From: a virus
Lineage: Duplodnaviria; Heunggongvirae; Uroviricota; Caudoviricetes
Virus record (IMG/VR): IMGVR_UViG_3300013105_000002
Location: 1 to 64,000 of that record
Strand: one strand, 5' to 3'
Length of the DNA stretch: 64,000 nt
Shown: positions 11,617-37,491 of the stretch, piece after piece
How the letters are laid out: each line of letters begins with the position of its first letter
Numbering within the stretch: the stretch's first letter is position 1
Position numbers and translations under genes: made by a program
Notes under the pieces: model-generated
The model's input: the letters and a program-made list of their open reading frames with translations, nothing else
Told to the model about the DNA's origin: nothing
Database searches by the model: none

Positions 11617-11642
11617 CCGGGTTCGTATGGTATACTGGCTCT

Positions 11643-12011: not shown

Positions 12012-12017
12012 CGGATT

Positions 12018-12089: not shown

Positions 12090-12146
12090 CGCGCCAGCGC
12101 CCGCTGGTTGTTTCGCAAGATTGACTCCAAAAAGGAGAAACACACT

Positions 12147-15065: not shown

Positions 15066-15136
15066 GGGATATAGATGTTGTGGCCGCATGTCACCTTGCC
15101 ATGGTGATCGCACGGGTTCGATTCCCGTATATCCCT
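15066..15136 (+). tRNA. tRNA-Gly (anticodon GCC)
   Basis: acceptor gggatat/atatccc, anticodon stem tcacc/ggtga loop ttgccat, T-arm acggg-ttcgatt-cccgt. Confidence 0.75.
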
Positions 15137-15138
15137 CT

Positions 15139-15210
15139 GAGTCCGAGCCGGAGGCATCAGGAGTTGCACTGTGACTGCAATTATCGTGGGTTCGAATCCC
15201 ACCGGACTCC
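15139..15210 (+). tRNA. tRNA-His (anticodon GTG)
   Basis: acceptor gagtccg/cggactc, anticodon stem ttgca/tgcaa loop ctgtgac, T-arm gtggg-ttcgaat-cccac. Confidence 0.7.
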
Positions 15211-15227
15211 CTCAATAAAGGAGAATC

Positions 15228-22647: not shown

Positions 22648-22741
22648 GAAAGTCTTTGAGAAGGGCTTGACAGGCGGTTGACGAGCGTGTAGTGTTGGTC
22701 TTGTTGGAGGGAATGGCCCTCCTGAACTAAGGAGAATGACT

Positions 22742-26390: not shown

Positions 26391-26445
26391 ATACCCCGGG
26401 GGTATGGTGTTTTCTATACTCTTCTTTGGTATACACTGGGGGTAT
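26391..26445 (+). repeat. two operator-type palindromes without promoter (ATACCCCGGGGGTAT 26391-26405; ATACACTGGGGGTAT 26431-26445)
   Basis: same ATACCC-N-GGGTAT family as downstream array. Confidence 0.6.
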
Positions 26446-26462
26446 ACACCTACCGGCGATAG

Positions 26463-26514
26463 ATACCCCGAAGGGTATCTATGGACTTGACACGTCTTTA
26501 CAGACTGATAGTCT
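26463..26514 (+). promoter_or_regulatory. operator + promoter P1 (leaderless gene 26521)
   Basis: op 26463-26478; -35 TTGACA 26487-26492; -10 TAGTCT 26509-26514; ATG 6 nt downstream. Confidence 0.6.
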
Positions 26515-26520
26515 TCTCTC

Positions 26521-27102
26521 ATGACAACAAACACCACGCCCCACACGAACCACATCCTTGCGGCATACCTGCGAGCATCCGAGGACGACCGTGCCTTTGG
26601 TATCGCTTGGTACCCCGCCGCTCGTGCCCTTGCTGAGAATCTTCTACCTGAGGACGTGAGCACCGCCGCAGGTGTTCTTGCTGCCATGTCTCCCATGACG
26701 TCATGGCCCGAGAACGTCAAGCGCGCGACTGTCGCCATCATGGGTGGCAAGGTCTCGCACACTGGCCCGAACGTTGACAAGGTTCTGCGCATCCTGTCCG
26801 GTGAGCACCCGCTCGACGTGCTGTCCGGTCCCAAGACTCGCGCGTTCTACCTCAACATCATGGGAATCGACAGTGACGAGACGGTCACTGTGGACAGACA
26901 CGCTATCGACGTGGCATGCGGTAATGTCCTCTCGGACTCCGACCGTGCCGGTGCCATCCGTGGCAAGGCAGGCTATGGTAAGGTCGCCGGTATGTACCGT
27001 GAGGCTGCAAGCGTTATCGGAATCACCCCGTGTGCCCTACAGGCCGTTGTTTGGGTGTACTGGCGGCGAAACGTTGCTCAGGCTTTCCACGGTGACGCGT
27101 GA
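26521..27102 (+). CDS. hypothetical protein
   Basis: 193-aa GC-rich ORF. Confidence 0.55.
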   Translation: MTTNTTPHTNHILAAYLRASEDDRAFGIAWYPAARALAENLLPEDVSTAAGVLAAMSPMTSWPENVKRATVAIMGGKVSHTGPNVDKVLRILSGEHPLDVLSGPKTRAFYLNIMGIDSDETVTVDRHAIDVACGNVLSDSDRAGAIRGKAGYGKVAGMYREAASVIGITPCALQAVVWVYWRRNVAQAFHGDA

Positions 27103-27234
27103 GGCTTGACACAAAAATCATTGCGGGGCTAGTGATCATGCTTGCCACTAGCCCCGTATGGTTTCCCATAGCGGTATTTTTCTACCTACTAGCACAGTGA
27201 GGTAGGTGGGCGCAAGCCCACCGGCCTTACATTT

Positions 27235-27305
27235 GTACCCCGAGGGTATTAGATACACCGGGGGTATGTGTAGGGCTTGACGCCCGGTAGGTACTCGGGT
27301 AATGT
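27235..27305 (+). promoter_or_regulatory. two operators + promoter P2 (drives ORF-less transcript)
   Basis: ops 27235-27249, 27253-27267; -35 TTGACG 27277-27282; -10 TAATGT 27300-27305. Confidence 0.55.
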
Positions 27306-27311
27306 TGTCCT

Positions 27312-27685
27312 TGTTGGAAGAGACCGAGGCACACAAGCGGTGAGAGTCCGTTATTCCAACGCACTACCGGAGTGGATAGCAAGTCGCTGCTTGGCTTGCA
27401 AGGACGAAACTCCACTAGGGTTGACTTTAAATCAGCCCCTTTGATTTGTGAATAGAGAGAGTCCACGACTCAGACACAAGCCTCTCATGGCGAGCCGTCA
27501 ATGATTTAGACACCACGCTACTAGTGACACGTTCCATGGAACACGTCCACGCCTCTGACGTTCTCTATTAAACGTTGTATCCGAATGCACGCATCCGTGA
27601 TAACATGACCAATGTCTCTCTCTAGGGTAGGTCTGATCAACCTACCGGCCCCGAGCGCAATGCATGGCGCTCGGGGTCTCATATT
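27312..27685 (+). ncRNA. candidate ~375-nt noncoding RNA (ncRNA-1)
   Basis: promoter P2 to strong terminator (ggccccgagcgc/gcgctcggggtc 27647-27678 + U tail); no ORF >11 aa; multiple hairpins incl. GNRA-looped stems. Confidence 0.5.
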
Positions 27686-27694
27686 GTCATCCAT

Positions 27695-27745
27695 ATACAC
27701 TGGGGGTATCTAGACTCTTGACATGAGCGCTGGTAGGCATAGACT
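27695..27745 (+). promoter_or_regulatory. operator + promoter P3
   Basis: op ATACACTGGGGGTAT 27695-27709; -35 TTGACA 27718-27723; -10 TAGACT 27740-27745. Confidence 0.55.
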
Positions 27746-27751
27746 GAGGAT

Positions 27752-27949
27752 ATGAAATCACCACGAAGAGCAATCATCTACAGCCACGGGCTACGCCCTG
27801 CATTTGACAAGCGCAAGTACAGCGATGACAAGAATCAGGCGCGGCGTGCTGCGAAGGGCGGTGTGCCTTGTGAGAAGTGTGGCAGGGTATACAAAGACCC
27901 CAACAGAAAGCACAACTCCGATCCCAAGAACAAGACGCCATGCCTTTGA
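27752..27949 (+). CDS. hypothetical basic protein
   Basis: 65 aa; CEKCG pair. Confidence 0.5.
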   Translation: MKSPRRAIIYSHGLRPAFDKRKYSDDKNQARRAAKGGVPCEKCGRVYKDPNRKHNSDPKNKTPCL

Positions 27950-27963
27950 GCATGGCCCCCTAT

Positions 27964-27993
27964 ATATCCCTAGGGTATGTCAGAGACTTGACA
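27964..27993 (+). promoter_or_regulatory. operator + -35 of promoter P4
   Basis: op ATATCCCTAGGGTAT 27964-27978; -35 TTGACA 27988-27993; -10 unclear. Confidence 0.4.
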
Positions 27994-28022
27994 GCCCTGA
28001 AGACACATGAGAGAGTATGCAT

Positions 28023-28178
28023 ATGAACAGGAACAAGCGGGCGCAGGCCCCCAAGCGAATCAACCGTCATGACTCTGCAATCGGTGACAAGCGCCGTGCG
28101 CGAAGTGGTCCGGTCATCCGAGGACAGCGTTTCGACAGGAACGATTTCCGCAACCAGAGCATGCGGGGTGAGTGGTGA
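28023..28178 (+). CDS. small basic protein (51 aa)
   Basis: ATG directly downstream of P4. Confidence 0.35.
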   Translation: MNRNKRAQAPKRINRHDSAIGDKRRARSGPVIRGQRFDRNDFRNQSMRGEW

Positions 28179-28336
28179 AGACTTTCGATCCTCTAGAGGT
28201 GACCCTCGTTTATGTCGATGTTCTTGGTACTGAGTACCGACAGAGTGCTGCCGACATTGTGGAAGTTGGAACCCTCATCGATCCTGACACCGGCGACGAT
28301 ATGGAACTCGTGCGAGTCGAAGTTCCCAACAACTAG
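28175..28336 (+). CDS. small acidic protein (53 aa)
   Basis: GTGA overlap; ends before next operator. Confidence 0.35.
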   Translation: MKTFDPLEVTLVYVDVLGTEYRQSAADIVEVGTLIDPDTGDDMELVRVEVPNN

Positions 28337-28366
28337 CAGATTGGCCCTTCGGGGTCAAGCCCCAAT

Positions 28367-28447
28367 ATACCCTGAGTGTATGTCTTGGAGGTATATACCC
28401 TAGGGGTACCAAACCGTATTGACACACCCCCGGCATCCCTGTAATGT
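28367..28447 (+). promoter_or_regulatory. two operators + promoter P5
   Basis: ops 28367-28381, 28395-28409; -35 TTGACA 28419-28424; -10 TAATGT 28442-28447. Confidence 0.55.
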
Positions 28448-28453
28448 TTGAGT

Positions 28454-28550
28454 TGTTGGAGAGAGCAACGGTGAACCAAAGAGTGTGCTTCAAGTCTGGC
28501 ACCGGATTGGGAAAGGGCACTCTCTCCAACTCAGAAAGTTTCTTAGCACA
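28454..28550 (+). ncRNA. structured RNA element (ncRNA-2 or long 5' leader of Lsr2-like gene)
   Basis: 5' TTGTTGGAGAGAG pairs with downstream CTCTCTCCAAC; 5' end paralogous to ncRNA-1; no ORF. Confidence 0.4.
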
Positions 28551-28555
28551 ATCGC

Positions 28556-28584
28556 TTGACACTCTGGTCTACATGGATTAGAGT
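28556..28584 (+). promoter_or_regulatory. promoter P6 (no operator) TTGACA-17-TAGAGT
   Basis: -35 28556-28561, -10 28579-28584; RBS GAAAGGA then ATG 28639. Confidence 0.5.
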
Positions 28585-28638
28585 ACGTAGTACCGGGAAA
28601 GAGACACACGGTCTCTCCCAAACGAAAGGACAACCATC

Positions 28639-29025
28639 ATGGCTTCCAAGCGCATCGCCAACCCGACCGAGGTCCGCACGTGGGCTGCCGCCAACCTCGC
28701 CACCATCGACGGGCTCCCCGAGGGCTACCGCCTCGGTGACCGGGGTCAGTTCCCGCCCGCCGTCATCACCGCCTTCAACAAGGCGCACAAGAACGTCAAG
28801 TACGTGCGTGGCGCGTTCGTCAACAAGACGGCGGTCAAGTTCACCCGCGTGACCGACAAGGGCCGCAAGGTGCCCGGTGTGGCTCACATCGACACCACGA
28901 AGGTCCGTGAGGCTGCCCGTGAGGCCGGTCTGGCGCTCCCGTCCAAGGGCCGTCTTCCGCAGGCCGTGAAGGTCGCCTACGCGCAGGGTCCGGACGCCCT
29001 GAAGGCGCTTGCCGCCACGGTCTGA
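28639..29025 (+). CDS. Lsr2-like DNA-binding protein with two tandem Lsr2-type C-terminal domains
   Basis: VRTWAAANL..LGDRGQFPPAVITAF and VREAAREAGLALPSKGRLPQAVKVAY resemble Lsr2 DBD (RGRIPADVIDAY). Confidence 0.65.
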   Translation: MASKRIANPTEVRTWAAANLATIDGLPEGYRLGDRGQFPPAVITAFNKAHKNVKYVRGAFVNKTAVKFTRVTDKGRKVPGVAHIDTTKVREAAREAGLALPSKGRLPQAVKVAYAQGPDALKALAATV

Positions 29026-29033
29026 AGGCCGCA

Positions 29034-29057
29034 GGGCCTCCCCTCCGGGGGAGGCCC
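29034..29057 (+). terminator. hairpin terminator
   Basis: gggcctcccc tcc ggggaggccc. Confidence 0.55.
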
Positions 29058-29075
29058 TAGCCTTTCGTCTATCAC

Positions 29076-29128
29076 ATACCCCAAGGGTATCCCATCGGAG
29101 TTGACAGGCTACTGTGAGCGTGTAGACT
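29076..29128 (+). promoter_or_regulatory. operator + promoter P7
   Basis: op ATACCCCAAGGGTAT 29076-29090; -35 TTGACA 29101-29106; -10 TAGACT 29123-29128. Confidence 0.6.
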
Positions 29129-29160
29129 GAACCTATCAACCCACGACATTGGAGGAACCA

Positions 29161-29586
29161 ATGAGCAAGCACTACCCCGGAACTCCCAAGGCATGGGCCG
29201 CCGAGCGCGGTCTCTGTGGCACGGGACGTGGACGCCCGCCCAAGGCTGCCATGGATGCCATTGCGGCTGCCATCGCTGACGGTTGGACGTTCGGCGGTGG
29301 GTCGGTGGTGGTGAACAAGTCCGCTGAGCCCACGGGGCCGGTGGTGGAGAAGCCCAAGGACGACAGCCCCAAGGGTGAGGCTGAAGGCGTGAACGTCTAC
29401 GCTGACGCGTTCTACCGCTATGACCGTGAGCAGAAATTCTACTATGAGCATGAGGGCAAGCGTCACGAGTGCTCTGGTCGCACGGCTTGCATGGGCTGTG
29501 GATACAGTCTCATTGGACACACGTGCAACGAAATGGTAGGCTTGACCAAGCACGGACAGAAAGTCATCAAGCCGCTGGGAGAGTGA
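29161..29586 (+). CDS. protein with N-terminal Lsr2-type DNA-binding motif and C-terminal Cys cluster
   Basis: RBS GGAGG; KAWAAERG..GRGRPPKAAMDAIAAA; C-terminal HECSGRTACMGCG. Confidence 0.55.
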   Translation: MSKHYPGTPKAWAAERGLCGTGRGRPPKAAMDAIAAAIADGWTFGGGSVVVNKSAEPTGPVVEKPKDDSPKGEAEGVNVYADAFYRYDREQKFYYEHEGKRHECSGRTACMGCGYSLIGHTCNEMVGLTKHGQKVIKPLGE

Positions 29587-29589
29587 CAT

Positions 29590-29862
29590 ATGGCACGCAT
29601 GAGCATTGAACAGAAACTCGCTGACAAGGTGGTGGATGCCACTCTGAGAGCAGACTTCGATGCGCCTCGGTTTGCCTACATCATGAACCGTTGTGGATGG
29701 AAGATTCAGGAAGTTCTGTTTCAGGTGGTGCTCGGGATGATCCGTCACTGGGCTATTGACCTAGAGACGGACAACACCAAGGGTGGAGCCGATGAGTATT
29801 ACCGGCTGACCATCAAGGCGAAAATCCTGCAGGATGCCATCGACCGTAACAAAATCGAGTGA
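29590..29862 (+). CDS. hypothetical protein
   Basis: 90-aa ORF. Confidence 0.5.
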   Translation: MARMSIEQKLADKVVDATLRADFDAPRFAYIMNRCGWKIQEVLFQVVLGMIRHWAIDLETDNTKGGADEYYRLTIKAKILQDAIDRNKIE

Positions 29863-29911
29863 GATTAGGGAGTCATCGTAAGAGGTGGCTCCCTACCTCA
29901 TTGGGGTATGC

Positions 29912-29990
29912 ATACCCTTGGGGTATTTGTATTGATACATACCCCGGGGGTATTGTCAGGGCTTGACGGATGACTCTGAGGTGATAGTCT
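29912..29990 (+). promoter_or_regulatory. operators + promoter P8 (leaderless)
   Basis: ops 29912-29926, 29939-29953 (plus inverted copy 29903-29917); -35 TTGACG 29963-29968; -10 TAGTCT 29985-29990; ATG 6 nt later. Confidence 0.6.
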
Positions 29991-29996
29991 TTAGCC

Positions 29997-30509
29997 ATGA
30001 ACCTCACAGACGCACAGATGCTCGCACGCACGGCTCTCGACGCCCACGGTCTCACCGACAAGGGTTGGCGAGTCGAGTGGGACAATGCCAAGAGGCGCAA
30101 CGGCTCTGCCTCATCCTCTGCTCGTGTCATCACCCTGTCGGCACCGCTGACGCACCTGAAGACACCTGAAGAGATGCGTCAGACCATTGGTCACGAAATC
30201 GCTCACGCCCTTGTTGGTACCCAGCACGGACACGGGCCGGTGTGGAAGGCCAAGATGCGGGAGTTGGGCCTAGTCGTGTCCACTACGGCAGTCCTCTCGG
30301 AAGAGACACGCGGCCAGATTGCCACGCTGAGGAACTACACCCTCACGTGCGTGGTGAACGGCAAGAGTCTCGGACACCTTGACAGGATCGTCAAGCAGCG
30401 CAAGGTCAGGCGCGGGGGCGGGTATGTCCTACGTACCTATGGCGCTCGTGTCTGCAAGTGCCACGGGGAGCCTGTCCTCTACAACGGCAAGTCATGGGAC
30501 GATATCTGA
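29997..30509 (+). CDS. SprT-like zinc metallopeptidase
   Basis: GHEIAHAL (HExxH) + downstream H/G; C-terminal CKCHG zinc ribbon. Confidence 0.7.
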   Translation: MNLTDAQMLARTALDAHGLTDKGWRVEWDNAKRRNGSASSSARVITLSAPLTHLKTPEEMRQTIGHEIAHALVGTQHGHGPVWKAKMRELGLVVSTTAVLSEETRGQIATLRNYTLTCVVNGKSLGHLDRIVKQRKVRRGGGYVLRTYGARVCKCHGEPVLYNGKSWDDI

Positions 30510-30538
30510 AAGGCAAGGCCCTACGGGGTCTAACCGTT

Positions 30539-30590
30539 ATACCCTGAGGGTAATTCCACCATTGACACCCGCGCCGGTAGGTGGTTGAAT
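30539..30590 (+). promoter_or_regulatory. operator + promoter P9
   Basis: op 30539-30553; -35 TTGACA 30562-30567; -10 TTGAAT 30585-30590. Confidence 0.5.
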
Positions 30591-30622
30591 AGCACTATCA
30601 ACCAAACGTCCTAGGAGGACAC

Positions 30623-30805
30623 ATGAAGACGGTAACTCTCTACTTCGTTGCACAGCCCGAGCCTGATGGCAGCACGCCGAACCCGAGCCTCTTCTACCTG
30701 AACGAAGACTACGACTTCGTGTCTCAGGAAGTTCCTCAGGGTGAGCGTGTCTACAGCGTCGGCGCGATCCTCATGGATGACACTGTGGAGGAAGTTGCCA
30801 ACTGA
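30623..30805 (+). CDS. hypothetical protein
   Basis: RBS AGGAGG; 60 aa. Confidence 0.5.
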   Translation: MKTVTLYFVAQPEPDGSTPNPSLFYLNEDYDFVSQEVPQGERVYSVGAILMDDTVEEVAN

Positions 30806-30825
30806 GCCCTTCGGGGTTTAGCCAC

Positions 30826-30875
30826 ATACCCTGAGGGTATGTCTCACTTGACAAGCGCCGGTGGATGCGTAGACT
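30826..30875 (+). promoter_or_regulatory. operator + promoter P10 (leaderless)
   Basis: op ATACCCTGAGGGTAT 30826-30840; -35 30848-30853; -10 TAGACT 30870-30875. Confidence 0.6.
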
Positions 30876-30881
30876 AGAGGC

Positions 30882-31097
30882 ATGGACATGGAAATCATTG
30901 ACACAGTACAGGCCCACACGTTGGAGCCGGGAGACACCATCGAGTACATCGATGACGAGGGACGCCGCTCACTTCAAGAAATCAAGAGCGCCGAAGACCT
31001 CGGAGACACCATCCGTGTGCAGTTGGAAGACTACGACGACGTAGACCTCTATGCTGATGGTGAGCAGAACATCTACGGATATCCTGCCGAAGACTGA
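30882..31097 (+). CDS. hypothetical acidic protein
   Basis: 71-aa ORF. Confidence 0.5.
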   Translation: MDMEIIDTVQAHTLEPGDTIEYIDDEGRRSLQEIKSAEDLGDTIRVQLEDYDDVDLYADGEQNIYGYPAED

Positions 31098-31162
31098 CAG
31101 GAACGCGGGGGAGTCGGAGAAATTCGGCTCCCCCAAACCTGTATCGTAAAGCCCATGAACAT

Positions 31163-31263
31163 TTCCCGAGGGTATCTACATACCCCAAGGGTATAGGATC
31201 ACACAAAACAAATACCCCATGAGGTATGGATGGGCTTGACAGGTCTCTGGGAACTGATAGTCT
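31163..31263 (+). promoter_or_regulatory. three operators + promoter P11 (leaderless)
   Basis: ops 31163-31175, 31180-31194, 31212-31227; -35 TTGACA 31236-31241; -10 TAGTCT 31258-31263. Confidence 0.6.
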
Positions 31264-31269
31264 TTACCT

Positions 31270-31635
31270 ATGAACGAACGAGACAAGCCGATGACCGGCG
31301 AGCACGCAGCAATCATCTTCGCGCAGGGCCTCACCGCCAAGTTCGCAGACAGCGAGTGGCCGTACAACCCTGAGTTCTCCGCTGATCTTTCGGGCAAGAA
31401 GTACATCCGAATCGTCAATGAGGGCAACCCTCACCCCGAGGACCAGACAACGAACCTGTACCGTCGTCAGCGCTCGTGCCACGCGTACGTGGACCGCGAG
31501 ACGGGCGAGGTGTACAAGTCCTCAGGATGGAAGGGTGGACCGGCCAAGGTCAACGGCAAGGCCGATGCACGATACCCCAACGTTTGGGAGGCTCTGGTCA
31601 AGGCTGACCGGAACGGAGGATACCTGTACAAGTAA
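31270..31635 (+). CDS. hypothetical protein
   Basis: 121-aa ORF. Confidence 0.55.
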   Translation: MNERDKPMTGEHAAIIFAQGLTAKFADSEWPYNPEFSADLSGKKYIRIVNEGNPHPEDQTTNLYRRQRSCHAYVDRETGEVYKSSGWKGGPAKVNGKADARYPNVWEALVKADRNGGYLYK

Positions 31636-31653
31636 CAGGTGTCAAGCAGGGAA

Positions 31654-31767
31654 ATACCCTTCGGGGTATTTTCTTGTTCTTACCCTATACCCTAGGGGTA
31701 TGCCTTGAAACGAAATACCCTTGGGGTATGGGATGGTGTTGACAGCCCTGCTCCCATGGTGTTTACT
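31654..31767 (+). promoter_or_regulatory. three operators + promoter P12 (leaderless)
   Basis: ops 31654-31669, 31687-31701, 31715-31729; -35 TTGACA 31739-31744; -10 TTTACT 31762-31767. Confidence 0.55.
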
Positions 31768-31773
31768 AGAGAT

Positions 31774-32037
31774 ATGAACAAGCAGACGCGCAAAGCGTAC
31801 CTCACTGACCTTGGTGCCCGTATCTACAATGCGGACACCTCCACCGAACTCATCGTGATCGCCACGGACATGGCAGATGCCGCGTCCATGGGTCGCTCGG
31901 AGACATGGAAGGGTGCTTGCACGATGGCAGGACGACGCACCCTCGCCAAGTTCAACATCGGTGTCCCGGTGCCATTCAAGGACGTTGGTGCCGTGGTCCA
32001 GCAAGGCTACGATGCCATGGTGGCAGCCAACAAGTAA
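31774..32037 (+). CDS. hypothetical protein
   Basis: ORF 31705 start overlaps promoter; ATG 31774 used. Confidence 0.5.
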   Translation: MNKQTRKAYLTDLGARIYNADTSTELIVIATDMADAASMGRSETWKGACTMAGRRTLAKFNIGVPVPFKDVGAVVQQGYDAMVAANK

Positions 32038-32042
32038 GCCCG

Positions 32043-32064
32043 CTAGGCCCCTCCGGGGGCCTAG
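32043..32064 (+). terminator. hairpin terminator
   Basis: ctaggcccc tccg ggggcctag. Confidence 0.5.
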
Positions 32065-32079
32065 CCTTATTAGCATGAG

Positions 32080-32131
32080 ATACACCGGGGGTATGTTCTA
32101 GGCTTGACACACACTACCAGACTGATAGTAT
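32080..32131 (+). promoter_or_regulatory. operator + promoter P13 (leaderless)
   Basis: op ATACACCGGGGGTAT 32080-32094; -35 32104-32109; -10 TAGTAT 32126-32131. Confidence 0.6.
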
Positions 32132-32137
32132 TTACCC

Positions 32138-32371
32138 ATGAGCCAAATGACATTCCACGAGCAGTTCGGTGAAGTTTCTGTCGCACAACTCCGTGCATAC
32201 AAGGCGCACAACGTCTCTCAGTCCGACCACGACTCCCTCGCCACGTTCTACTCCGAGGGCGGCCACGAGTCCATCACAAAGGCGGTGAAAGACCCACGCA
32301 ACCACGTGCCCGGAACGAGGTTGTTCTCGTGGCACACGTGGTACTCCAACACCGAGCGTTACAACTGGTGA
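32138..32371 (+). CDS. hypothetical protein
   Basis: 77-aa ORF. Confidence 0.5.
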   Translation: MSQMTFHEQFGEVSVAQLRAYKAHNVSQSDHDSLATFYSEGGHESITKAVKDPRNHVPGTRLFSWHTWYSNTERYNW

Positions 32372-32406
32372 ACACACCGGCCCTACGGGGTCCGTGTGTA
32401 TACCCC

Positions 32407-32458
32407 GGGGGTAATTAGAGTGTTGACCACCAGCGCCGGTAGGTGTAGAGTAAAGGTA
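32407..32458 (+). promoter_or_regulatory. operator + promoter P14 (drives ORF-less transcript)
   Basis: op 32407-32421; -35 TTGACC 32430-32435; -10 TAGAGT 32453-32458. Confidence 0.5.
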
Positions 32459-32464
32459 TTGAAG

Positions 32465-32606
32465 GGGATGGAAGGACGCAAGGTGCAAATCCCTGCTAGC
32501 AATTGAACCCTTCGACGCAAGACATGTATGTGACAGTGCATGCCATAGAGACTAGTCATCTCGCCGGGGCCTGAGCCTGACTAACTCAGGTCTCTTGCTT
32601 TTGCCA
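32465..32606 (+). ncRNA. candidate ~140-nt noncoding RNA (ncRNA-3)
   Basis: no + strand ORF; ends in hairpin cctgag...ctcagg + tctcttgcttttg. Confidence 0.4.
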
Positions 32607-32611
32607 TACAC

Positions 32612-32758
32612 ATACCCTAGGGGTAAATTCGGCTCCTAGAATCGCTTATCGTAAACGGTCTGTTCGCTATCCCCCAAGGGTGCACATACCCTCGTGGGAT
32701 TTGATATACCCTTGGGGTATGCCAGACAGGTTGACACGTCCCGGCATGTGAGTAGACT
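32612..32758 (+). promoter_or_regulatory. operators + promoter P15
   Basis: ops 32612-32626, 32686-32700, 32706-32720; -35 32731-32736; -10 TAGACT 32753-32758; leader with RBS GAGGAAA. Confidence 0.55.
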
Positions 32759-32795
32759 TGGACCATCAGCCAAACCGAGTAGTGAGGAAACTACA

Positions 32796-33065
32796 ATGGC
32801 ACGTCAACTCCGAGTCATCGCCCGCGAGATCGTGAAGGACTACGCAGACAAGGGCAAGCCGGTCACGCCGTTTGCCAAGCCGTACGTGGACGCGATGCTC
32901 ACGATGGACAGCGTGGCCGACACCTACGGAGCCGAGAGTGGCGAGTACGTCGTCCTCTACGGGCTGCACAACCTCTCCGGATGGCGAGGCGAGAAGGCAC
33001 GCGAGGTGAAGGCCGAACTGAAGGCTCTTGTCTCCGAGCATCGCAGGGCGAACCCGCGCCGGTGA
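32796..33065 (+). CDS. hypothetical protein
   Basis: ATG 32796 after RBS; 89 aa. Confidence 0.5.
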   Translation: MARQLRVIAREIVKDYADKGKPVTPFAKPYVDAMLTMDSVADTYGAESGEYVVLYGLHNLSGWRGEKAREVKAELKALVSEHRRANPRR

Positions 33066-33070
33066 GTGGA

Positions 33071-33090
33071 GGGGACTTCGGTCCCCTTTT
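33071..33090 (+). terminator. rho-independent terminator
   Basis: ggggac ttcg gtcccc tttt. Confidence 0.6.
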
Positions 33091-33104
33091 CTCATACCCT
33101 GCCA

Positions 33105-33156
33105 ATACCCCGAGGGTATAGTTTGGTGTTGACAGGTCGGGCGGTAGGAGTAGACT
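33105..33156 (+). promoter_or_regulatory. operator + promoter P16 (leaderless)
   Basis: op ATACCCCGAGGGTAT 33105-33119; -35 33129-33134; -10 TAGACT 33151-33156. Confidence 0.6.
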
Positions 33157-33162
33157 GAGAAC

Positions 33163-33375
33163 ATGAAAACGATCAATGGATGCGCAGTCATCGCCCACCG
33201 TCCCTACGGCAACACCCTTCCGTCTGAGGGTTTCGTGATCCTCGCAGTCAAGACGCTCGGTGACTCTTACGAGTACATCACTGCTGTTGTCTCCACGCTC
33301 GATGACAGGGAGTGGTTCTGGGGTCACTACATCACCTCGCTAGAGGAAGCCACGTCCGACTACTTCTCTCGCTGA
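33163..33375 (+). CDS. hypothetical protein
   Basis: 70-aa ORF. Confidence 0.5.
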   Translation: MKTINGCAVIAHRPYGNTLPSEGFVILAVKTLGDSYEYITAVVSTLDDREWFWGHYITSLEEATSDYFSR

Positions 33376-33405
33376 GAGGGGAGGCCCCACGGGGTCTTTC
33401 CATAT

Positions 33406-33457
33406 ATACCCTGAGGGTATGTCAACGCATTGACAGCCCTCCAATCCTTGATAGGAT
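33406..33457 (+). promoter_or_regulatory. operator + promoter P17 (leaderless)
   Basis: op 33406-33420; -35 33430-33435; -10 TAGGAT 33452-33457. Confidence 0.55.
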
Positions 33458-33463
33458 GTAGTC

Positions 33464-33631
33464 ATGTACTACGACATGGACGACCACCGTTGCTTCGACT
33501 GTGATGGGCGCTACTGCCCACCGGGCCAGTGCCTCCGTACCGAGACCTCCGTGTGGGTCGTGGGTCACGGTTGGACCGACCCCGAGACTGCCAAGGGCTT
33601 TGAGGCTCTGGGAAGGACGGTGCAGTGGTGA
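33464..33631 (+). CDS. small Cys-rich protein (55 aa)
   Basis: CFDCDGRYCPPGQC; below track cutoff. Confidence 0.4.
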   Translation: MYYDMDDHRCFDCDGRYCPPGQCLRTETSVWVVGHGWTDPETAKGFEALGRTVQW

Positions 33632-33649
33632 GGCTTCGGCCTTACACAT

Positions 33650-33701
33650 ATCCCCTAAGGGTATGTCTAGGTGTTGACACCTGACCTGTAGGGTGTAGAC
33701 T
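33650..33701 (+). promoter_or_regulatory. operator + promoter P18
   Basis: op ATCCCCTAAGGGTAT 33650-33664; -35 33674-33679; -10 TAGACT 33696-33701. Confidence 0.55.
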
Positions 33702-33708
33702 TAGGGAC

Positions 33709-33918
33709 ATGAAGACGATCACAGTGACCATGACCGGCGAGGCTTTCGAGTCCTACAGCGTGGACGGGGCCTACTTCCCCGAGTTCAAGAACGACGAGAG
33801 CGGCGAGTGGGATGCCATTCCTGCCGTCTTCGTCGGACGCCCCATCATGCACCGTGGACAGGTGGGAGACGCAACGATCCTCTACGGGCTCGACGTTCGG
33901 AAGGTGACAATGCAGTAA
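33709..33918 (+). CDS. hypothetical protein
   Basis: 69-aa ORF. Confidence 0.5.
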   Translation: MKTITVTMTGEAFESYSVDGAYFPEFKNDESGEWDAIPAVFVGRPIMHRGQVGDATILYGLDVRKVTMQ

Positions 33919-33950
33919 AGGGCAGGCCCCTCCGGGGGTCACTCCCATAT

Positions 33951-34003
33951 ATACCCTCGGGGTAAGTCTGAGACTTGACATGCATGCCCTAGGGGTACAT
34001 AAT
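33951..34003 (+). promoter_or_regulatory. operator + promoter P19 (leaderless); half-operator inside spacer
   Basis: op 33951-33965; -35 33975-33980; -10 CATAAT 33998-34003. Confidence 0.5.
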
Positions 34004-34009
34004 TGGAAC

Positions 34010-34213
34010 ATGAACACGATCCGAGACCTCATCCTCACCGCCAACGGTGGCAGTATGCACACGGCCACCCTGAACACGCTCACCATGCTTGTGTTCGCGG
34101 TCCTCTTCATCGCTGCCGGTGTTGCTTGCGCCTACGTCGTGGCAGCCCTCACGGCACAGCACAAGGCTCACATGCACACCGACAAGGTGACCGTCATCAC
34201 CGACGCACAGTGA
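34010..34213 (+). CDS. small membrane protein
   Basis: ATG 34010; one TM helix. Confidence 0.5.
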   Translation: MNTIRDLILTANGGSMHTATLNTLTMLVFAVLFIAAGVACAYVVAALTAQHKAHMHTDKVTVITDAQ

Positions 34214-34229
34214 CCCCGGAAGGGGCTAT

Positions 34230-34281
34230 ATACCCTTAGGGTATGTTTGAGGTTTGACACAATGCCCCAAACTGATATGCT
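34230..34281 (+). promoter_or_regulatory. operator + promoter P20
   Basis: op ATACCCTTAGGGTAT 34230-34244; -35 34254-34259; -10 TATGCT 34276-34281. Confidence 0.55.
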
Positions 34282-34309
34282 TGTCCTACCAACCACGGAA
34301 GGGGACACA

Positions 34310-34516
34310 ATGTCTCGCAAGGATTACGAAGCGCTCGCGGCAGTCATCGCGGGTGAGGTGGCATGTGCGGCAGGTAACAAGGACAAACTGCGCACGTCCT
34401 CCAACATCGCTCGGAGCATGGCTGACGTGTTCCACCGTGGAAACGAGCGTTTCGACCGTGTGCGCTTTTACAAGGCTTGCGGACTGGACATGACGGGCGG
34501 TTTCCCCGACGTGTGA
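34310..34516 (+). CDS. hypothetical protein
   Basis: RBS GGAAGGGGA + ATG 34310. Confidence 0.5.
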   Translation: MSRKDYEALAAVIAGEVACAAGNKDKLRTSSNIARSMADVFHRGNERFDRVRFYKACGLDMTGGFPDV

Positions 34517-34521
34517 GAGCG

Positions 34522-34545
34522 TGGCCCCTACGGGGGCCATTGCTT
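34522..34545 (+). terminator. rho-independent terminator
   Basis: tggcccc tacg ggggcca + ttgctttt. Confidence 0.6.
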
Positions 34546-34556
34546 TTACCTAGCAT

Positions 34557-34608
34557 ATACCCTCGGGGTATATATAGGCTTGACAGTGCACCTAGGGTGT
34601 GATTGAAT
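34557..34608 (+). promoter_or_regulatory. operator + promoter P21
   Basis: op ATACCCTCGGGGTAT 34557-34571; -35 34580-34585; -10 TTGAAT 34603-34608. Confidence 0.55.
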
Positions 34609-34644
34609 TGTCTTCTCAACCAGAACACCTCCCAAGGAGACACC

Positions 34645-34785
34645 ATGATCGTCGAAATCCGCAACAACGGTCTCATCATCGACTACGTGGTAATGCCTAA
34701 CTTCCGAGCGGCTGTCATGTTCACCCAGAGATTCAACCGAGTCTCCACAAACAAGGGTTTCACCCAGAGGGCGGTGATCGCCTGA
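34645..34785 (+). CDS. hypothetical protein (46 aa)
   Basis: RBS AAGGAGA + ATG 34645. Confidence 0.4.
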   Translation: MIVEIRNNGLIIDYVVMPNFRAAVMFTQRFNRVSTNKGFTQRAVIA

Positions 34786-34806
34786 GCCCTTCGGGGCTTT
34801 CCCCAT

Positions 34807-34858
34807 ATACACTCGGGGTATATCAATGGCTTGACACGAGGCCGGTATTTGATATGCT
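34807..34858 (+). promoter_or_regulatory. operator + promoter P22 (drives ORF-less transcript)
   Basis: op ATACACTCGGGGTAT 34807-34821; -35 34831-34836; -10 TATGCT 34853-34858. Confidence 0.55.
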
Positions 34859-34864
34859 TGTTAT

Positions 34865-34968
34865 ATGAGGTCGGAGGGAGAGCGGACCAAAAAAGTCTCA
34901 CCGTCAGAGAAGACGCAAATCGCACAGTGAGTCTAGGCTGCAAGGGTCTAGGCTCACTTGTTTGTCTA
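34865..34968 (+). ncRNA. candidate ~105-nt noncoding RNA (ncRNA-4)
   Basis: no ORF; 3' hairpin gtgagtctaggc...ctaggctcac 34927-34957 + TTGTTTG. Confidence 0.45.
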
Positions 34969-34972
34969 TAGA

Positions 34973-35023
34973 ATACCCTAGGGGTATACAAGTGGCTTGA
35001 CACATGCCGCCGATCTGATAGAG
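34973..35023 (+). promoter_or_regulatory. operator + promoter P23 (leaderless)
   Basis: op ATACCCTAGGGTAT 34973-34986; -35 34996-35001; -10 TAGAGT 35018-35023. Confidence 0.55.
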
Positions 35024-35029
35024 TTCTCA

Positions 35030-35113
35030 CATGGGAATCATCATCGTGTCACTGCTCGCAGCAATCTTTTGGCGCATCGCCATCAGCCCGATCATCGACA
35101 GTTTCAACAAGTA
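35030..35113 (+). CDS. tiny hydrophobic peptide (27 aa)
   Basis: ATG 6 nt after -10; followed by strong terminator. Confidence 0.25.
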
Positions 35114-35120
35114 GGGCGTG

Positions 35121-35148
35121 AAAGGCCCGGAGAAATCCGGGCCTTTTG
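35121..35148 (+). terminator. rho-independent terminator
   Basis: aaggcccgga gaaa tccgggcctt + ttgcg. Confidence 0.65.
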
Positions 35149-35175
35149 CGTGTCATCGTAAAAGGCCCAATTGGT

Positions 35176-35190
35176 ATACCCCAAGGGTAC
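35176..35190 (+). repeat. orphan operator copy ATACCCCAAGGGTAC
   Basis: no -35 downstream; sits before bidirectional terminator. Confidence 0.5.
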
Positions 35191-35206
35191 AAAACGGGCA
35201 TGAGAA

Positions 35207-35235
35207 GACCCTAGGTGCGCCGCTCACCTAGGGTC
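35207..35235. terminator. bidirectional terminator (perfect 11-bp stem)
   Basis: gaccctaggtg cgccgct cacctagggtc between convergent + and - genes. Confidence 0.6.
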
Positions 35236-35245
35236 TCTCTGGGTC

Positions 35246-35398
35246 TCAGGCCATGGACACCTCACGCTTCCACGTGGAGCGCTCACGGCGCTTGGCGATC
35301 CGTCGTGCCATCTTACGGGCGCTGGGCGCGTCACCGCAGCAAGAGCAGTCACGACCACCGGGGCCGTAGGGGCAGGACTTGCCAATCATGCGAGCCAT
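35246..35398 (-). CDS. small basic Cys-rich protein (50 aa), only minus-strand gene in the early array
   Basis: MARMIGKSCPYGPGGRDCSCCGD...RRIAKRRERSTWKR; own promoter. Confidence 0.45.
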   Translation of the reverse strand: MARMIGKSCPYGPGGRDCSCCGDAPSARKMARRIAKRRERSTWKREVSMA

Positions 35399-35437
35399 GA
35401 TTTTCTCTCTCTGTAGTTGTTTTTTCTTGCTGGGATA

Positions 35438-35467
35438 AACATATGACAGATGGCCGGTGGTGTCAAG
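35438..35467 (-). promoter_or_regulatory. minus-strand promoter CTTGACA-17-TATGTT
   Basis: revcomp of 35461-35467 = -35; revcomp of 35438-35443 = -10; divergent from P25. Confidence 0.5.
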
Positions 35468-35475
35468 CCGATCCA

Positions 35476-35555
35476 ATACCCCAAGGGTAAATCATCAGAC
35501 AGATACCCCTAGGGTATGTTTTTGGCTTGACGATGTTTCCGCATTCCCGTAGTGT
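35476..35555 (+). promoter_or_regulatory. two operators + promoter P25
   Basis: ops 35476-35490, 35503-35517; -35 TTGACG 35527-35532; -10 TAGTGT 35550-35555. Confidence 0.5.
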
Positions 35556-35601
35556 TTCTCTTGTCAGGAGGAAACGCCTCCCCCACACAAAAGGATTTGA
35601 A

Positions 35602-35895
35602 ATGTCGCTCTCCCTCGCCGGAACCAAGTCCACGGTTGTCTCGCCCGCCTCGCACGGCATCGACAACTACGGCCCCGAGGTGCAGGCAATCACCTTCAAG
35701 TACAACGGGGTCGCCTACACGATCAACCGTCGTGGCAACTCCAACGTCAAGGGCTTCCACTCCTTCCGGAACAACACGTACACGGTCACCAACGGCACCG
35801 ACCGTGTGTCGAACATGATCGTCAACCGTTTCGACTTCGTGTCCATCCTCTACACTGACGGTCGAATCGAGTCGAACGACTACACCGCTCGATGA
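35602..35895 (+). CDS. hypothetical protein
   Basis: RBS AAAGGA + ATG 35602; 97 aa. Confidence 0.5.
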   Translation: MSLSLAGTKSTVVSPASHGIDNYGPEVQAITFKYNGVAYTINRRGNSNVKGFHSFRNNTYTVTNGTDRVSNMIVNRFDFVSILYTDGRIESNDYTAR

Positions 35896-35900
35896 GAGGC

Positions 35901-35918
35901 AGGCCCCTTCGGGGGCCT
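35901..35918 (+). terminator. hairpin terminator
   Basis: aggcccc ttcg ggggcct. Confidence 0.55.
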
Positions 35919-35940
35919 AGCCTTTCGCCCATGACATACC

Positions 35941-35955
35941 CTCGGGGTATGTAGT
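35941..35955 (+). repeat. operator copy ATACCCTCGGGGTAT (weak promoter downstream)
   Basis: -35-like TTGTGT 35964-35969 only. Confidence 0.4.
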
Positions 35956-35993
35956 CTATTGTGTTACTGTCCGGTAGGGTATAGGGTGGTCAC

Positions 35994-36155
35994 ATGACCA
36001 AATACAAGTATGAGATTTTCCACGCTGTCAGTGGCGGCTTTTTCACGGGTCACCTTCACACGGTGTACTCCAACTCCAACGATGCCAACCTGTGGTGCGA
36101 GACGTTCGAACGTCAGGGCTACACGGGCCTCTACATGATCCGCAGGGAGGTCTAG
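35994..36155 (+). CDS. hypothetical protein (53 aa)
   Basis: + strand ORF; overlapping minus-strand ORF 35964-36239 judged spurious. Confidence 0.4.
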   Translation: MTKYKYEIFHAVSGGFFTGHLHTVYSNSNDANLWCETFERQGYTGLYMIRREV

Positions 36156-36183
36156 CACAAAGACCCTTCGGGGTCCATTAACA

Positions 36184-36236
36184 ATTACCCTCGGGGTATG
36201 TGTAGGGCTTGACATGATCCCCAGAACTGATAAACT
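36184..36236 (+). promoter_or_regulatory. operator + promoter P26 (leaderless)
   Basis: op 36184-36199; -35 36209-36214; -10 TAAACT 36231-36236. Confidence 0.55.
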
Positions 36237-36242
36237 CATGCC

Positions 36243-36461
36243 ATGAACGAAAACGAGATCACCCGCATCGTGGCCGACGCTCTGCGTGAGGCTTACGCCA
36301 TCAACACCGCTCAGTTCAAGGACGAGAAGGTGGAGCGTGAGACCGTGGACAGCGTGCTGTATGACGTTGCCTACAACATCGCTCAGGAGGTATGGCCCAC
36401 GCGCAGCCCTGAGTCTCCGGTCATGCCAGACGAGTGGTTGGAGGCGATCAAGGGTCGCTGA
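36243..36461 (+). CDS. hypothetical protein
   Basis: 72-aa ORF. Confidence 0.5.
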   Translation: MNENEITRIVADALREAYAINTAQFKDEKVERETVDSVLYDVAYNIAQEVWPTRSPESPVMPDEWLEAIKGR

Positions 36462-36466
36462 GGATA

Positions 36467-36487
36467 GGCTCCCACGGGAGCCTTTTC
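36467..36487 (+). terminator. rho-independent terminator
   Basis: ggctccc ac gggagcc + ttttcc. Confidence 0.6.
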
Positions 36488-36501
36488 CTTTACCCTACCG
36501 C

Positions 36502-36554
36502 ATACCCTAGGGGTATATATGGGGCTTGACATGGAGTCGGGCGGCAGGTAATGT
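36502..36554 (+). promoter_or_regulatory. operator + promoter P27
   Basis: op ATACCCTAGGGGTAT 36502-36516; -35 36526-36531; -10 TAATGT 36549-36554. Confidence 0.55.
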
Positions 36555-36589
36555 TCTTCTTGTCAGAACATCGATGAAAGGAAACTGAC

Positions 36590-36736
36590 ATGTACGAGCA
36601 CCCCGACCACGGCATCATGACTCTGGAAGAAGTTTGGATGACCGACGCTGGTGTGAAGTACGGTCGATTCGTGACCGTCAAGTGGGGAACGTCCATCAAC
36701 ATGCCCATCTGCATGGTGCACAAGTTGCCATCATGA
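36590..36736 (+). CDS. hypothetical protein (48 aa)
   Basis: RBS AAAGGA + ATG 36590. Confidence 0.4.
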   Translation: MYEHPDHGIMTLEEVWMTDAGVKYGRFVTVKWGTSINMPICMVHKLPS

Positions 36737-36753
36737 TGTAAAGGAAATCCGGT

Positions 36754-36778
36754 CAGCCCTTCGGGGTTGGCTGTTTTT
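36754..36778 (+). terminator. rho-independent terminator
   Basis: cagccc ttcg gggttg + ctgttttt. Confidence 0.6.
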
Positions 36779-36790
36779 CCGGTCAAGCCT

Positions 36791-36843
36791 ATACCCTTGG
36801 GGTATATCAGTACGCTTGACATGCCCCGATTTTCTGATTAGGC
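36791..36843 (+). promoter_or_regulatory. operator + promoter P28
   Basis: op ATACCCTTGGGGTAT 36791-36805; -35 36816-36821; weak -10 TTAGGC 36838-36843. Confidence 0.45.
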
Positions 36844-36881
36844 TGGGGCTACGCCCAAGCAACACCGACTAAGGAGACACC

Positions 36882-37151
36882 GTGAACGTCACCCCGAAGA
36901 CCGCCGCTCGCCAGATCGTCCTCGCCCGTGCGGAGCGTGCTGCAAAGCCCGTTTACACGTCCGAGACGGGCGTGGTGCGTCCGGTTCGCGTGGAGGCCGC
37001 TCCCATCGTGGAGGACGACCCGCACTGCTTCGTTTGTGGTCGGCACACGGATCACTTCGCAGAGCACGACGACATGGTGGAGGCTGGCACGGCCACCTAC
37101 GGCGAGGACGGGAGTGTCTACCCTGTCCCGTGGAACTTCATCCTCGGGTGA
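36882..37151 (+). CDS. hypothetical protein
   Basis: RBS AAGGAGA + GTG 36882; CFVCG..H pair. Confidence 0.5.
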   Translation: MNVTPKTAARQIVLARAERAAKPVYTSETGVVRPVRVEAAPIVEDDPHCFVCGRHTDHFAEHDDMVEAGTATYGEDGSVYPVPWNFILG

Positions 37152-37156
37152 GGCGA

Positions 37157-37178
37157 GGGGCCGAAAGGCCCCTTTCTT
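37157..37178 (+). terminator. rho-independent terminator
   Basis: ggggcc gaaa ggcccc + tttctt. Confidence 0.65.
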
Positions 37179-37190
37179 CATGTGTGTGAC

Positions 37191-37243
37191 ATACCCTCGG
37201 GGTATCCCAAAGTATTGACAAAAGCGCCGGTAGCAAATAGGCT
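37191..37243 (+). promoter_or_regulatory. operator + promoter P29
   Basis: op ATACCCTCGGGGTAT 37191-37205; -35 37215-37220; -10 TAGGCT 37238-37243. Confidence 0.55.
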
Positions 37244-37278
37244 ATGCGTAGCAAGCCAAACAGAAGAGAGAAGGAACA

Positions 37279-37491
37279 ATGTCTTTCCTTGCAGAAGCAC
37301 ATCAGGAATGGCACACGGTTCATGGACAGGTCGTTTGTCCTCTGGATTGTGGAATCGGAGAGGGTCAGGACGACTACGATCACGAGCCCATGACCGAAGA
37401 AGAGGAAATCGAACTTCAAGCATGGCGAGCACGACAGGAAGCGATGGATTCCACTGATGATCCCGCTCCTTGGGAGGTTGCCCCGTTTTGA
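37279..37491 (+). CDS. hypothetical acidic protein
   Basis: RBS AGAAGGA + ATG 37279; 70 aa. Confidence 0.5.
   Translation: MSFLAEAHQEWHTVHGQVVCPLDCGIGEGQDDYDHEPMTEEEEIELQAWRARQEAMDSTDDPAPWEVAPF

Follow-up and report, generated by a model that had tools for sequence, protein, structure and literature searches.

The 64,000-nt stretch of DNA analysed here (positions 1 to 64,000 of the IMG/VR record IMGVR_UViG_3300013105_000002, a virus of the Caudoviricetes; henceforth the window) makes up about half of a ~131-kb phage genome which is known solely via metagenome assemblies. Between two promoters, P5 and P6, upstream of a gene for an Lsr2-like protein, it carries a stem-loop element which a preliminary description had reported at 28454-28550 as either a discrete small RNA (sRNA) or a riboregulatory 5' leader; the sequence and the coordinates were as first described. 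With moderate confidence we read this stem as the start of a long P5-derived leader on the messenger RNA (mRNA) of the Lsr2-like gene, originating from a cassette that copies the upstream ribosomal RNA (rRNA) operon promoter, rrn P1, of Kribbella, and not as a separate sRNA. The segment 28448-28555 would be the promoter-proximal part of a ~185-nt 5' leader made from P5. Of the two options offered earlier, that of a 5' leader on this gene is preferable; the sRNA and a riboregulator with a functional core were not supported.

The motif TTGTTGGA occurs three times in the 64 kb, both strands considered, and every occurrence lies exactly 5 nt past a TA[A/G]TGT -10 box which has TTGAC[A/G] 17 nt upstream of it. 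The three modules begin at 22667, 27277 and 28419, and the composite pattern TTGAC-N18-TARTGT-N5-TTGTTGGA, matched exactly at 28419-28460 by the module of the stem, was observed three times in the window against 0.00 expected. The exact 13-mer TTGTTGGAGAGAG, given before as the 5' motif shared by two structured RNAs, was not significantly repeated; it is the composite pattern that recurs. By local alignment the three copies have only ~25 nt in common, a piece that begins with the -10 box and ends at about +11 to +13. The ncRNA-1 of the preliminary description, whose paralogy with the element had been taken to argue for function, probably corresponds to the copy at 27277. Such paralogy past the promoter was rejected, as the similarity was no better than in shuffled sequences; nothing is shared past ~25 nt and the promoter/start module is present at Kribbella rRNA P1 as well. 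The sequence of the shared piece speaks for a promoter-leader cassette in common (TTGAC-N18-TA[A/G]TGT-N5-TTGTTGGAR), which would be used at least three times in the window, and not for two paralogous RNAs.

The composite pattern was scanned in one genome per species, 185,579 species in all, and 13 hits were obtained, five of which represent one orthologous locus in Kribbella/Kribbellaceae. Since this locus lies 400-415 nt 5' of the 16S rRNA gene and is followed by a second promoter ~170 nt downstream and then by the usual rRNA leader, it is by its position the upstream promoter (P1) of the rRNA operon. The phage copies and host P1 are alike in the -35/-10 layout, the TAATGT box, the N5 spacing and the first transcribed bases (TTGTTGGAG); in both the motif is the 5' strand of the closing stem and a second promoter lies downstream. 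The host start motif containing the predicted start G is GUUGGAGCG. The host start GUUGGAGCGAG pairs with CGCUCC(A/G)AAC ~30 nt downstream, and the host leader folds as UUGGAGCG...CGCUCCAA enclosing a CGC-GNRA-GCG tip; the tetraloop is GAAA, GGAA or GAGA depending on the species (L043, L048, L049, L050, L052, handles of this kind denoting the contigs and loci compared). No description of the Kribbella P1 leader hairpin was found in the literature searched. Unlike host P1, the phage copies serve protein genes or short stretches of non-coding sequence and not rRNA, the interior of the phage hairpin is unrelated (GUGCU-8 nt-GGCAC) and lacks the CGC-GNRA-GCG tip, the promoters are spaced 57-108 nt apart against ~170 nt in the host, and the phage adds palindromes of its own upstream. 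Since the same first bases are closed by a complementary strand of differing sequence, the phage cassette copies the -10 box, the start region and the 5' helix of the host rRNA P1, and nothing further.

P5 was not called by the consensus promoter scan, its TAATGT matching TATAAT at 3 of 6 positions. The -10 box and the next bases match the Kribbella rrn P1 promoter, and it is this identity, not the consensus scan, that makes P5 credible and bears out the earlier statement that the element directly follows a promoter. P5 would be an rRNA-P1-type promoter placed under phage palindromes, the upstream one in a conserved P5/P6 pair. Its predicted start is the 8th base past the -10 box, which is the first purine there in the host promoter. 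Host and phage transcripts would probably start at the G of GUUGGA, with first bases pairing to a downstream YUCC(N)RAAC, and the RNA would begin with a hairpin and have little or no single-stranded 5' end.

The pairing of this 5' end was compared with downstream-shuffled sequences in 15 copies (12 phage, 3 host), the start being assumed at the G of GUUGGA. In all 15 copies positions +1 to +6 were more paired than in the shuffled controls (Fisher p = 0.0019 for the 12 phage copies). The pairing probability of these positions in the window stem was 0.99 vs 0.63 in the shuffles, while the longest-complement test gave p = 0.023 combined and 0.005 for the window stem. Bases +7 to +9 and their partners read GCG/CGC in the host, GAG/CUC in the window allele, AGA/UCU in L036, GGG/CCC in the 22701 copy and AGC/GCU in L025; these bases were aligned by hand, and since the 3' arms were found by their complementarity, it is shuffling that provides the fair control. 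Across the copies the two arms stand 4 to ~70 nt apart, a range which suits an RNA hairpin and not a protein-binding DNA site. Since the short spacers of the relatives (see below) and the host hairpins fold near the shuffle level, the structural signal is a consistent trend, modest in any single copy.

In the window itself the stem-loop is real and beyond chance. The '~14-bp stem' first proposed exists, and it is more simply described as a perfect 11-bp helix (28455-28465 with 28520-28530); in an alternative pairing 28449-28465 and 28520-28533 form 7 bp, a 3-nt bulge and 7 bp. RNAfold placed the 11-bp helix in both the minimum-free-energy and the centroid structures (-30 to -33 kcal/mol). The z value of the stem fold was -1.8, -2.2 or -2.4, depending on the chosen ends, and when the first 14 nt were matched against the 100 nt that follow, ~0.5% of dinucleotide shuffles reached 11 consecutive Watson-Crick pairs (p ~0.005). 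The helix encloses an interior of 54 nt. The core had been called GC-rich, but the 34-nt string quoted for it contains 53% G+C (hand count) and the window average is 52%. A repeat or mobile-element origin of the core was rejected, as no other copy of it occurs in the window or in related loci. IMG/VR held no related copy (a single 19-mer match was an unrelated chance match) and the plasmids searched held none, and scans of metagenome and viral contigs with the 20-mer GTAATGTTTGNGTTGTTGGA returned chance matches only, in unrelated A+T-rich contigs.

Contigs encoding the identical Lsr2-like protein could be divided into two alleles, one with a long spacer (the window and L002) and one with a short spacer (L001, L003, L004, L006-L008); L009, whose Lsr2-like protein is 96% identical, also carries the short one. 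The short spacer, a conserved 53-54 nt, is 48 nt shorter and lacks the core. The 48-nt core is absent in 7 of the 9 close-relative contigs compared and also in L029-L031, and is present only in the window and L002. Between the window and L001 the coding sequences are 99% identical and the spacers 47%, while contigs with no more than 66-69% identity in the Lsr2 coding sequence share the short spacer at 93-96% identity (window 28336-29025 vs L001, L029, L030). The comparison suggests that spacer and coding sequence have discordant histories, and recombination seems to break at the promoter/start module. Because of these discordant histories and the missing core in the relatives, the long allele is best seen as a rare, derived or swapped-in variant, and the core not as the conserved functional heart of the element. 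A riboswitch-like conserved sensing core was rejected, since it is absent in L001, L003, L004 and L006-L009 despite the same downstream gene; with the unrelated spacers of the distant relatives, this speaks against the riboregulator with a functional core considered earlier. The window stem would be an unusually long (11 bp) form of the leader hairpin, built around a 48-nt insertion of this allele only.

More distant Lsr2-like homologues (35-58% identity) were collected by profile search and their contexts fetched. All except L038 have a long intergenic region 5' of the gene (235-270 nt in L029-L035, longer in some others), and the conserved layout consists of a terminator hairpin, two to three palindromes, the upstream promoter, a spacer of ~50-110 nt, the second promoter and a leader hairpin. 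A second promoter stands at the position of P6 in L001, L009, L027, L029-L037 and L039, and tandem promoters precede the Lsr2-like gene in relatives down to 39% protein identity (L027, L029-L037, L039). Since it is present in all fetched relatives but L038, the tandem arrangement is old and conserved. The spacers themselves fall into sequence groups, namely the short, the L036-type, the L039-type and the group-B type with an extra palindrome.

Within the leader reading, transcription from P5 would continue past P6 and on into the Lsr2-like gene, just as P1 transcripts of the host have to pass P2. The most likely role of the hairpin would be to guard the P5 transcript at its 5' end against 5'-end-dependent ribonucleases, and the DNA of the module would give P5 rRNA-promoter-like initiation properties. 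The protection of the 5' end is proposed because 5'-terminal stem-loops act in this way in other bacteria, where they protect RNAs from 5'-end-dependent decay, as in the case of the E. coli ompA leader hairpin and of the Bacillus 5' hairpins blocking RNase J/RppH. As in those stabilisers, the leader would be long and has no coding or ligand-binding features, and if +1 is indeed G28455 the helix would begin at the 5' end or at most 1-2 nt from it; unlike them, the helix encloses a 54-nt interior, which is unusual for the class.

Several observations weigh against the leader reading. The fold of the short spacers is not more stable than that of shuffles (z +0.2 to -0.9), the z values of the host hairpins range from +0.95 to -1.5, and the fold stability of the L025, L036 and L039 spacers is likewise not above that of shuffles. 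The helices are not homologous between the alleles, as the 3' arm of the long allele aligns with bases paired elsewhere in the short allele, and the perfect 11-bp (GA)n/(CU)n inverted repeat could be the product of a template switch and need not have been selected. A function at the DNA level could account equally well for the conserved short spacer, and L038 has a single promoter. The similarity of P6 to the second host rRNA promoter is no better than in shuffles, and the boxA-like leader of the host, TTCTTGAGAACTCAACAG, has no match in the window with up to 3 mismatches.

The main rival is an explanation at the DNA level, which we consider somewhat unlikely. According to it, the start bases would tune initiation at P5, the A/T-rich 3' part would serve as upstream element or operator of P6, and the inverted repeat would be a by-product of the insertion or template switch, leaving the RNA hairpin functionless. 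The high identity of the short spacer beside diverged coding sequence fits such a role, as do the low identity of the long and short alleles beside a nearly identical gene, the direct repeat GAAAAACTYCCC standing twice just 5' of P6, the extra ATACCC..GGGTAA palindrome of the group-B spacers before P6, and short alleles that fold no more stably than shuffles. However, the 5' end is paired above the shuffled controls in every one of the 15 copies, a change of the 5' arm is accompanied by a change of its partner in the host as well as the phage copies, and an arm distance that can be as small as 4 or as large as ~70 nt does not suit a protein-binding DNA palindrome.

It is distinctly unlikely that P5 makes a discrete sRNA of ~80-95 nt which ends after the long stem, the Lsr2-like gene being expressed from P6 only. 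The stem is followed by AGAAAGUUUCUU in the window allele, the second promoter directly downstream would make read-through from P5 dispensable, and a short RNA may be produced by at least one copy of the cassette, since a terminator-like hairpin and T-run (27418-27448) follow the sister module at 27277. Against this, an intrinsic terminator was taken to be a compact G+C-rich hairpin with a loop of 3-8 nt and a T-run directly after it, and no such site was called at 28440-28560. The interior of the stem measures 54 nt, and the 12 nt past the stem contain only 5 U. The relatives' spacers corresponding to 28448-28555 are without T-runs, contain weak hairpins only and end with CCCAAACAGGC or ACAAAAGUC, showing no U-run, and rRNA synthesis in the host model requires that P1 transcripts pass P2.

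Still less probable is a cis-acting RNA that modifies the transcription complex, of the HK022 put or boxA/Nus type, and lets P5 transcripts pass the terminator hairpins of the region. The element does stand directly after a promoter and has copies after other promoters, terminator-type hairpins are densely spaced in the region, and the motif is borrowed from an rRNA operon; rRNA operons use antitermination. However, the boxA-like leader of the host sits past the second host promoter and has no counterpart in the window, the structure past the closing stem is not conserved, no Rfam match was obtained, and almost every small gene of the region has its own promoter, so read-through is not obviously needed. 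The HK022 put RNAs resemble the present case as paired structured elements directly after early promoters, but there is no sequence or structural similarity to them and no conserved two-hairpin fold.

The earlier statement that no open reading frame (ORF) is present was not exact, since a 45-codon ORF spans 28444-28581; it was rejected as coding, because it opens with an ATG within the -10 box and is not conserved, and in the sense of conserved coding potential the statement stands. In L009 the frame is shifted by a 1-nt indel; in the short alleles it ends after 18-21 codons and the GTG start is missing. A small protein or upstream ORF of 36-42 aa, read from TTG 28453 (leaderless) or from GTG 28471 with GGAGAG ~5-7 nt 5' of it, is hardly credible in spite of the open frame, because the GTG is absent in the short alleles, the L009 indel breaks the frame, the frame lengths of 8-42 codons across the copies are those expected of random sequence (hand reading), and the frame ends inside P6.

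Should the leader reading be correct, we are dealing not with a new riboregulator but with a clear example of a host rRNA promoter that a phage has copied, along with the initial structured bases of the RNA made from it, and uses several times; a lytic phage could by this route couple early genes, here that of a nucleoid-protein mimic, to the growth-rate control of the host. More tentatively, we suggest that uncultivated ~130-kb actinophages took the -10 box, the start region and the leader hairpin of host rrn P1 as a portable cassette and placed it under their own palindromic operators before selected early functions, tying these to host rRNA control; the hairpin would be functional in host pre-rRNA and in phage transcripts, and the cassette would signal a Kribbella host. 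If this is true, genes including that of the Lsr2-like DNA-binding protein would be tied to the control of host rRNA synthesis (growth rate, stringent response, CarD/RbpA-type factors). The cassette points to Kribbella as the best guess for the host of the phage group; no paper focused on Kribbella phages was found in the literature searched. A small class of leader hairpins, found in host and phage and absent from Rfam, is defined, and caution is advisable elsewhere, since shared 5' motifs after promoters can be promoter/transcript-start modules and not paralogous RNAs. The link to the host rRNA promoter is a more interesting result than the original claim of a riboregulator or sRNA with a paralogue, which is itself only partly supported.

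Features of the Lsr2-like locus and of the two other module copies in the window
Feature	Position	Strand	Remarks
Third module copy	22667..22722	+	5' of DUF932 gene; TTGACA-17-TAGTGT-tggtc-TTGTTGGAGGGAA; hairpin GGAGGG/CCCUCC
Second module copy	27277..27360	+	TTGACG-17-TAATGT-tgtcc-TTGTTGGAAGAG; 5' stem GUUGGAA 27313-27319 / UUCCAAC 27354-27360
Terminator-type hairpin GGCCC-TTCG-GGGTC	28343..28356	+	closes upstream small gene; marks start of regulatory region
Two phage-specific palindromes ATACCC-N3/4-GGGTAT	28367-28381 (imperfect), 28395-28409	+	5' of P5
P5 promoter	28419..28447	+	-35 TTGACA 28419-28424; 17-nt spacer; -10 TAATGT 28442-28447; upstream one of tandem pair
Transcript-start motif TTGTTGGAGAGAG	28453..28465	+	predicted +1 = G28455
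Closing helix, 5' arm GUUGGAGAGAG (also written GTTGGAGAGAG)	28455..28465	+	
Enclosed core	28466..28519	+	allele-specific; small hairpin GUGCU 28485-28489 / GGCAC 28498-28502
Closing helix, 3' arm CUCUCUCCAAC (also written CTCTCTCCAAC)	28520..28530	+	alternative register reaches 28533
A/T-rich stretch	28533..28555	+	AGAAAGTTTCT palindrome 28533-28543, then TAGCACAATCGC; adjoins P6 -35 box
P6 promoter TTGACA-17-TAGAGT	28556..28584	+	consensus-scan call; downstream one of tandem pair
Hairpin GGGAAAGAGAC / GGUCUCUCCC	28595..28619	+	leader part common to P5 and P6 transcripts
Ribosome-binding site GAAAGGA	28624-28630	+	3' of 28595-28619 hairpin
Lsr2-like gene, 128 aa	28639..29025	+	two Lsr2 DNA-binding repeats; Pfam PF23359, E = 3.5e-12, two stretches

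The intergenic region opens with the same hairpin as at 28343-28356 in all the relatives compared, and two or three copies of the palindrome stand at the position equivalent to 28367-28409; the palindromes of the window are presumed operator or activator sites of P5. The interval between P5 and P6 is 108 nt and contains the stem. The A/T-rich stretch before P6 may be an upstream element of this promoter, and A-tracts are found at the same place in relatives, e.g. GAAAAACTYCCC twice in the short allele. P6 and the Lsr2-like gene, both predicted before, were borne out, the former by the consensus scan and the latter by its two Lsr2 repeats. The hairpin at 28595-28619 keeps its position in 9 relatives while its sequence differs, with compensatory changes; it lies ~5-20 nt 5' of the ribosome-binding site, and the versions in the relatives include AGAGAC/GUCUCU, AGGGAA/UUCCCU, GGGG/CCCC and GAUCGGGA/UCCCGAUC. 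The region of the Lsr2-like gene (28639-29100) has 65-77% G+C vs 52% in the window, and its product carries the two Lsr2 repeats and no recognisable oligomerisation domain; by its composition the gene looks like one captured from a high-GC host. The product of the next gene (29161-29586) has a GRGRPPK motif.

Downstream of the module at 27277 stand a terminator-like hairpin (27418-27438) and CTTTGATTTG (site 27418-27448); the resulting RNA would be ~135 nt long and contain no conserved ORF. In L001 (L001:3750-3880) the allele of this module has a different middle, and its closing stem is again UGUUGGA/UCCAACA. The composite pattern was found at seven loci in IMG/VR, six of them distinct. One, L027, belongs to a relative with the same palindromes, and another, L025, is a 122-kb contig in which the module and a tandem promoter, with a 40-nt spacer, stand 5' of a gene for a small AT-hook protein (L025:2365-2676, minus strand; 103 aa with two RGRP, AT-hook-like, motifs). 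A variant start motif could be observed in the window at 36526-36575 (TAATGT-tcttc-TTGTCAGAAC), and the group-B loci L027, L032-L035 and L037 have TAACTT or TAATTT, then tgtcc/tgtac and TTGTCAGCAC/TTGTAAGCG. These start-motif variants suggest a wider cassette family.

Known classes of structured RNA were searched as well. At gathering scores Rfam reported six tRNAs only for the whole window, and at 28300-28700 no match was obtained with E up to 10 and permissive filters. With ARAGORN and the Rfam tRNA model no tRNA or tmRNA was detected at 28.4-28.6 kb, while seven tRNAs were found elsewhere in the window. For other phage clusters, a dip of G+C 5' of lsr2 has been suggested to indicate autoregulation (PMC8612146); upstream of the present Lsr2-like gene no dip below the genome average was seen. 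The upstream region of the Lsr2 gene in the cluster-BE-type Streptomyces phage Peebs was rejected as a relative of the element, the two being unrelated. In Peebs (L040, ~126550-126740, minus strand) a ~105-nt unannotated leader precedes the annotated Lsr2-like gene after a TTGTAG...TATACT promoter; it contains a possible 21-codon leaderless ORF and complementary purine-rich and pyrimidine-rich runs, and it folds no better than shuffles. In the literature searched for the motif and for cluster-BE promoters nothing relevant and no description of the motif was found.

The surroundings of the locus are themselves composed of repeated promoter units, ~20 of which make up the genome between 26.4 and 37.3 kb. 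Each consists of a terminator-type hairpin, at least one ATACCC-N3/4-GGGTAT palindrome ending ~10 nt 5' of TTGACA, and a TAGACT-like -10 box; examples of the palindrome-bearing units are 27690-27745, 29075-29128 and 33100-33160 (within 26400-37300). Usually an ATG follows 6-7 nt past the -10 box and opens a leaderless small gene, and this spacing in most units would imply leaderless mRNAs. Promoter-early stem-loop (PeSL) cassettes of T4-type phages have been described as mobile regulatory cassettes and are proposed to mediate modular shuffling. The present units are like them in that repeated terminator-hairpin and promoter units flank small early genes and the regulatory and coding histories are discordant; they are unlike them in phage group, promoter sequences and palindromic operator, and the present stem belongs to the transcript, 3' of the promoter, and is not located upstream of it.

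In the phage collection neither the region, the Lsr2-like protein nor a 24-kb stretch had a match, and there was no nucleotide match for the window; in IMG/VR no close relative was found with a protein query or an exact 22-mer. The ribonucleotide reductase encoded in the window is 57.7% identical to those of ~133-kb Streptomyces phages of the cluster-BE type. The seven tRNA genes of the window (Leu x3, Thr x2, Gly, His), located at 1572-1976, 11543-12090 and 15066-15211, are in keeping with the big tRNA sets of related ~130-kb actinophages.

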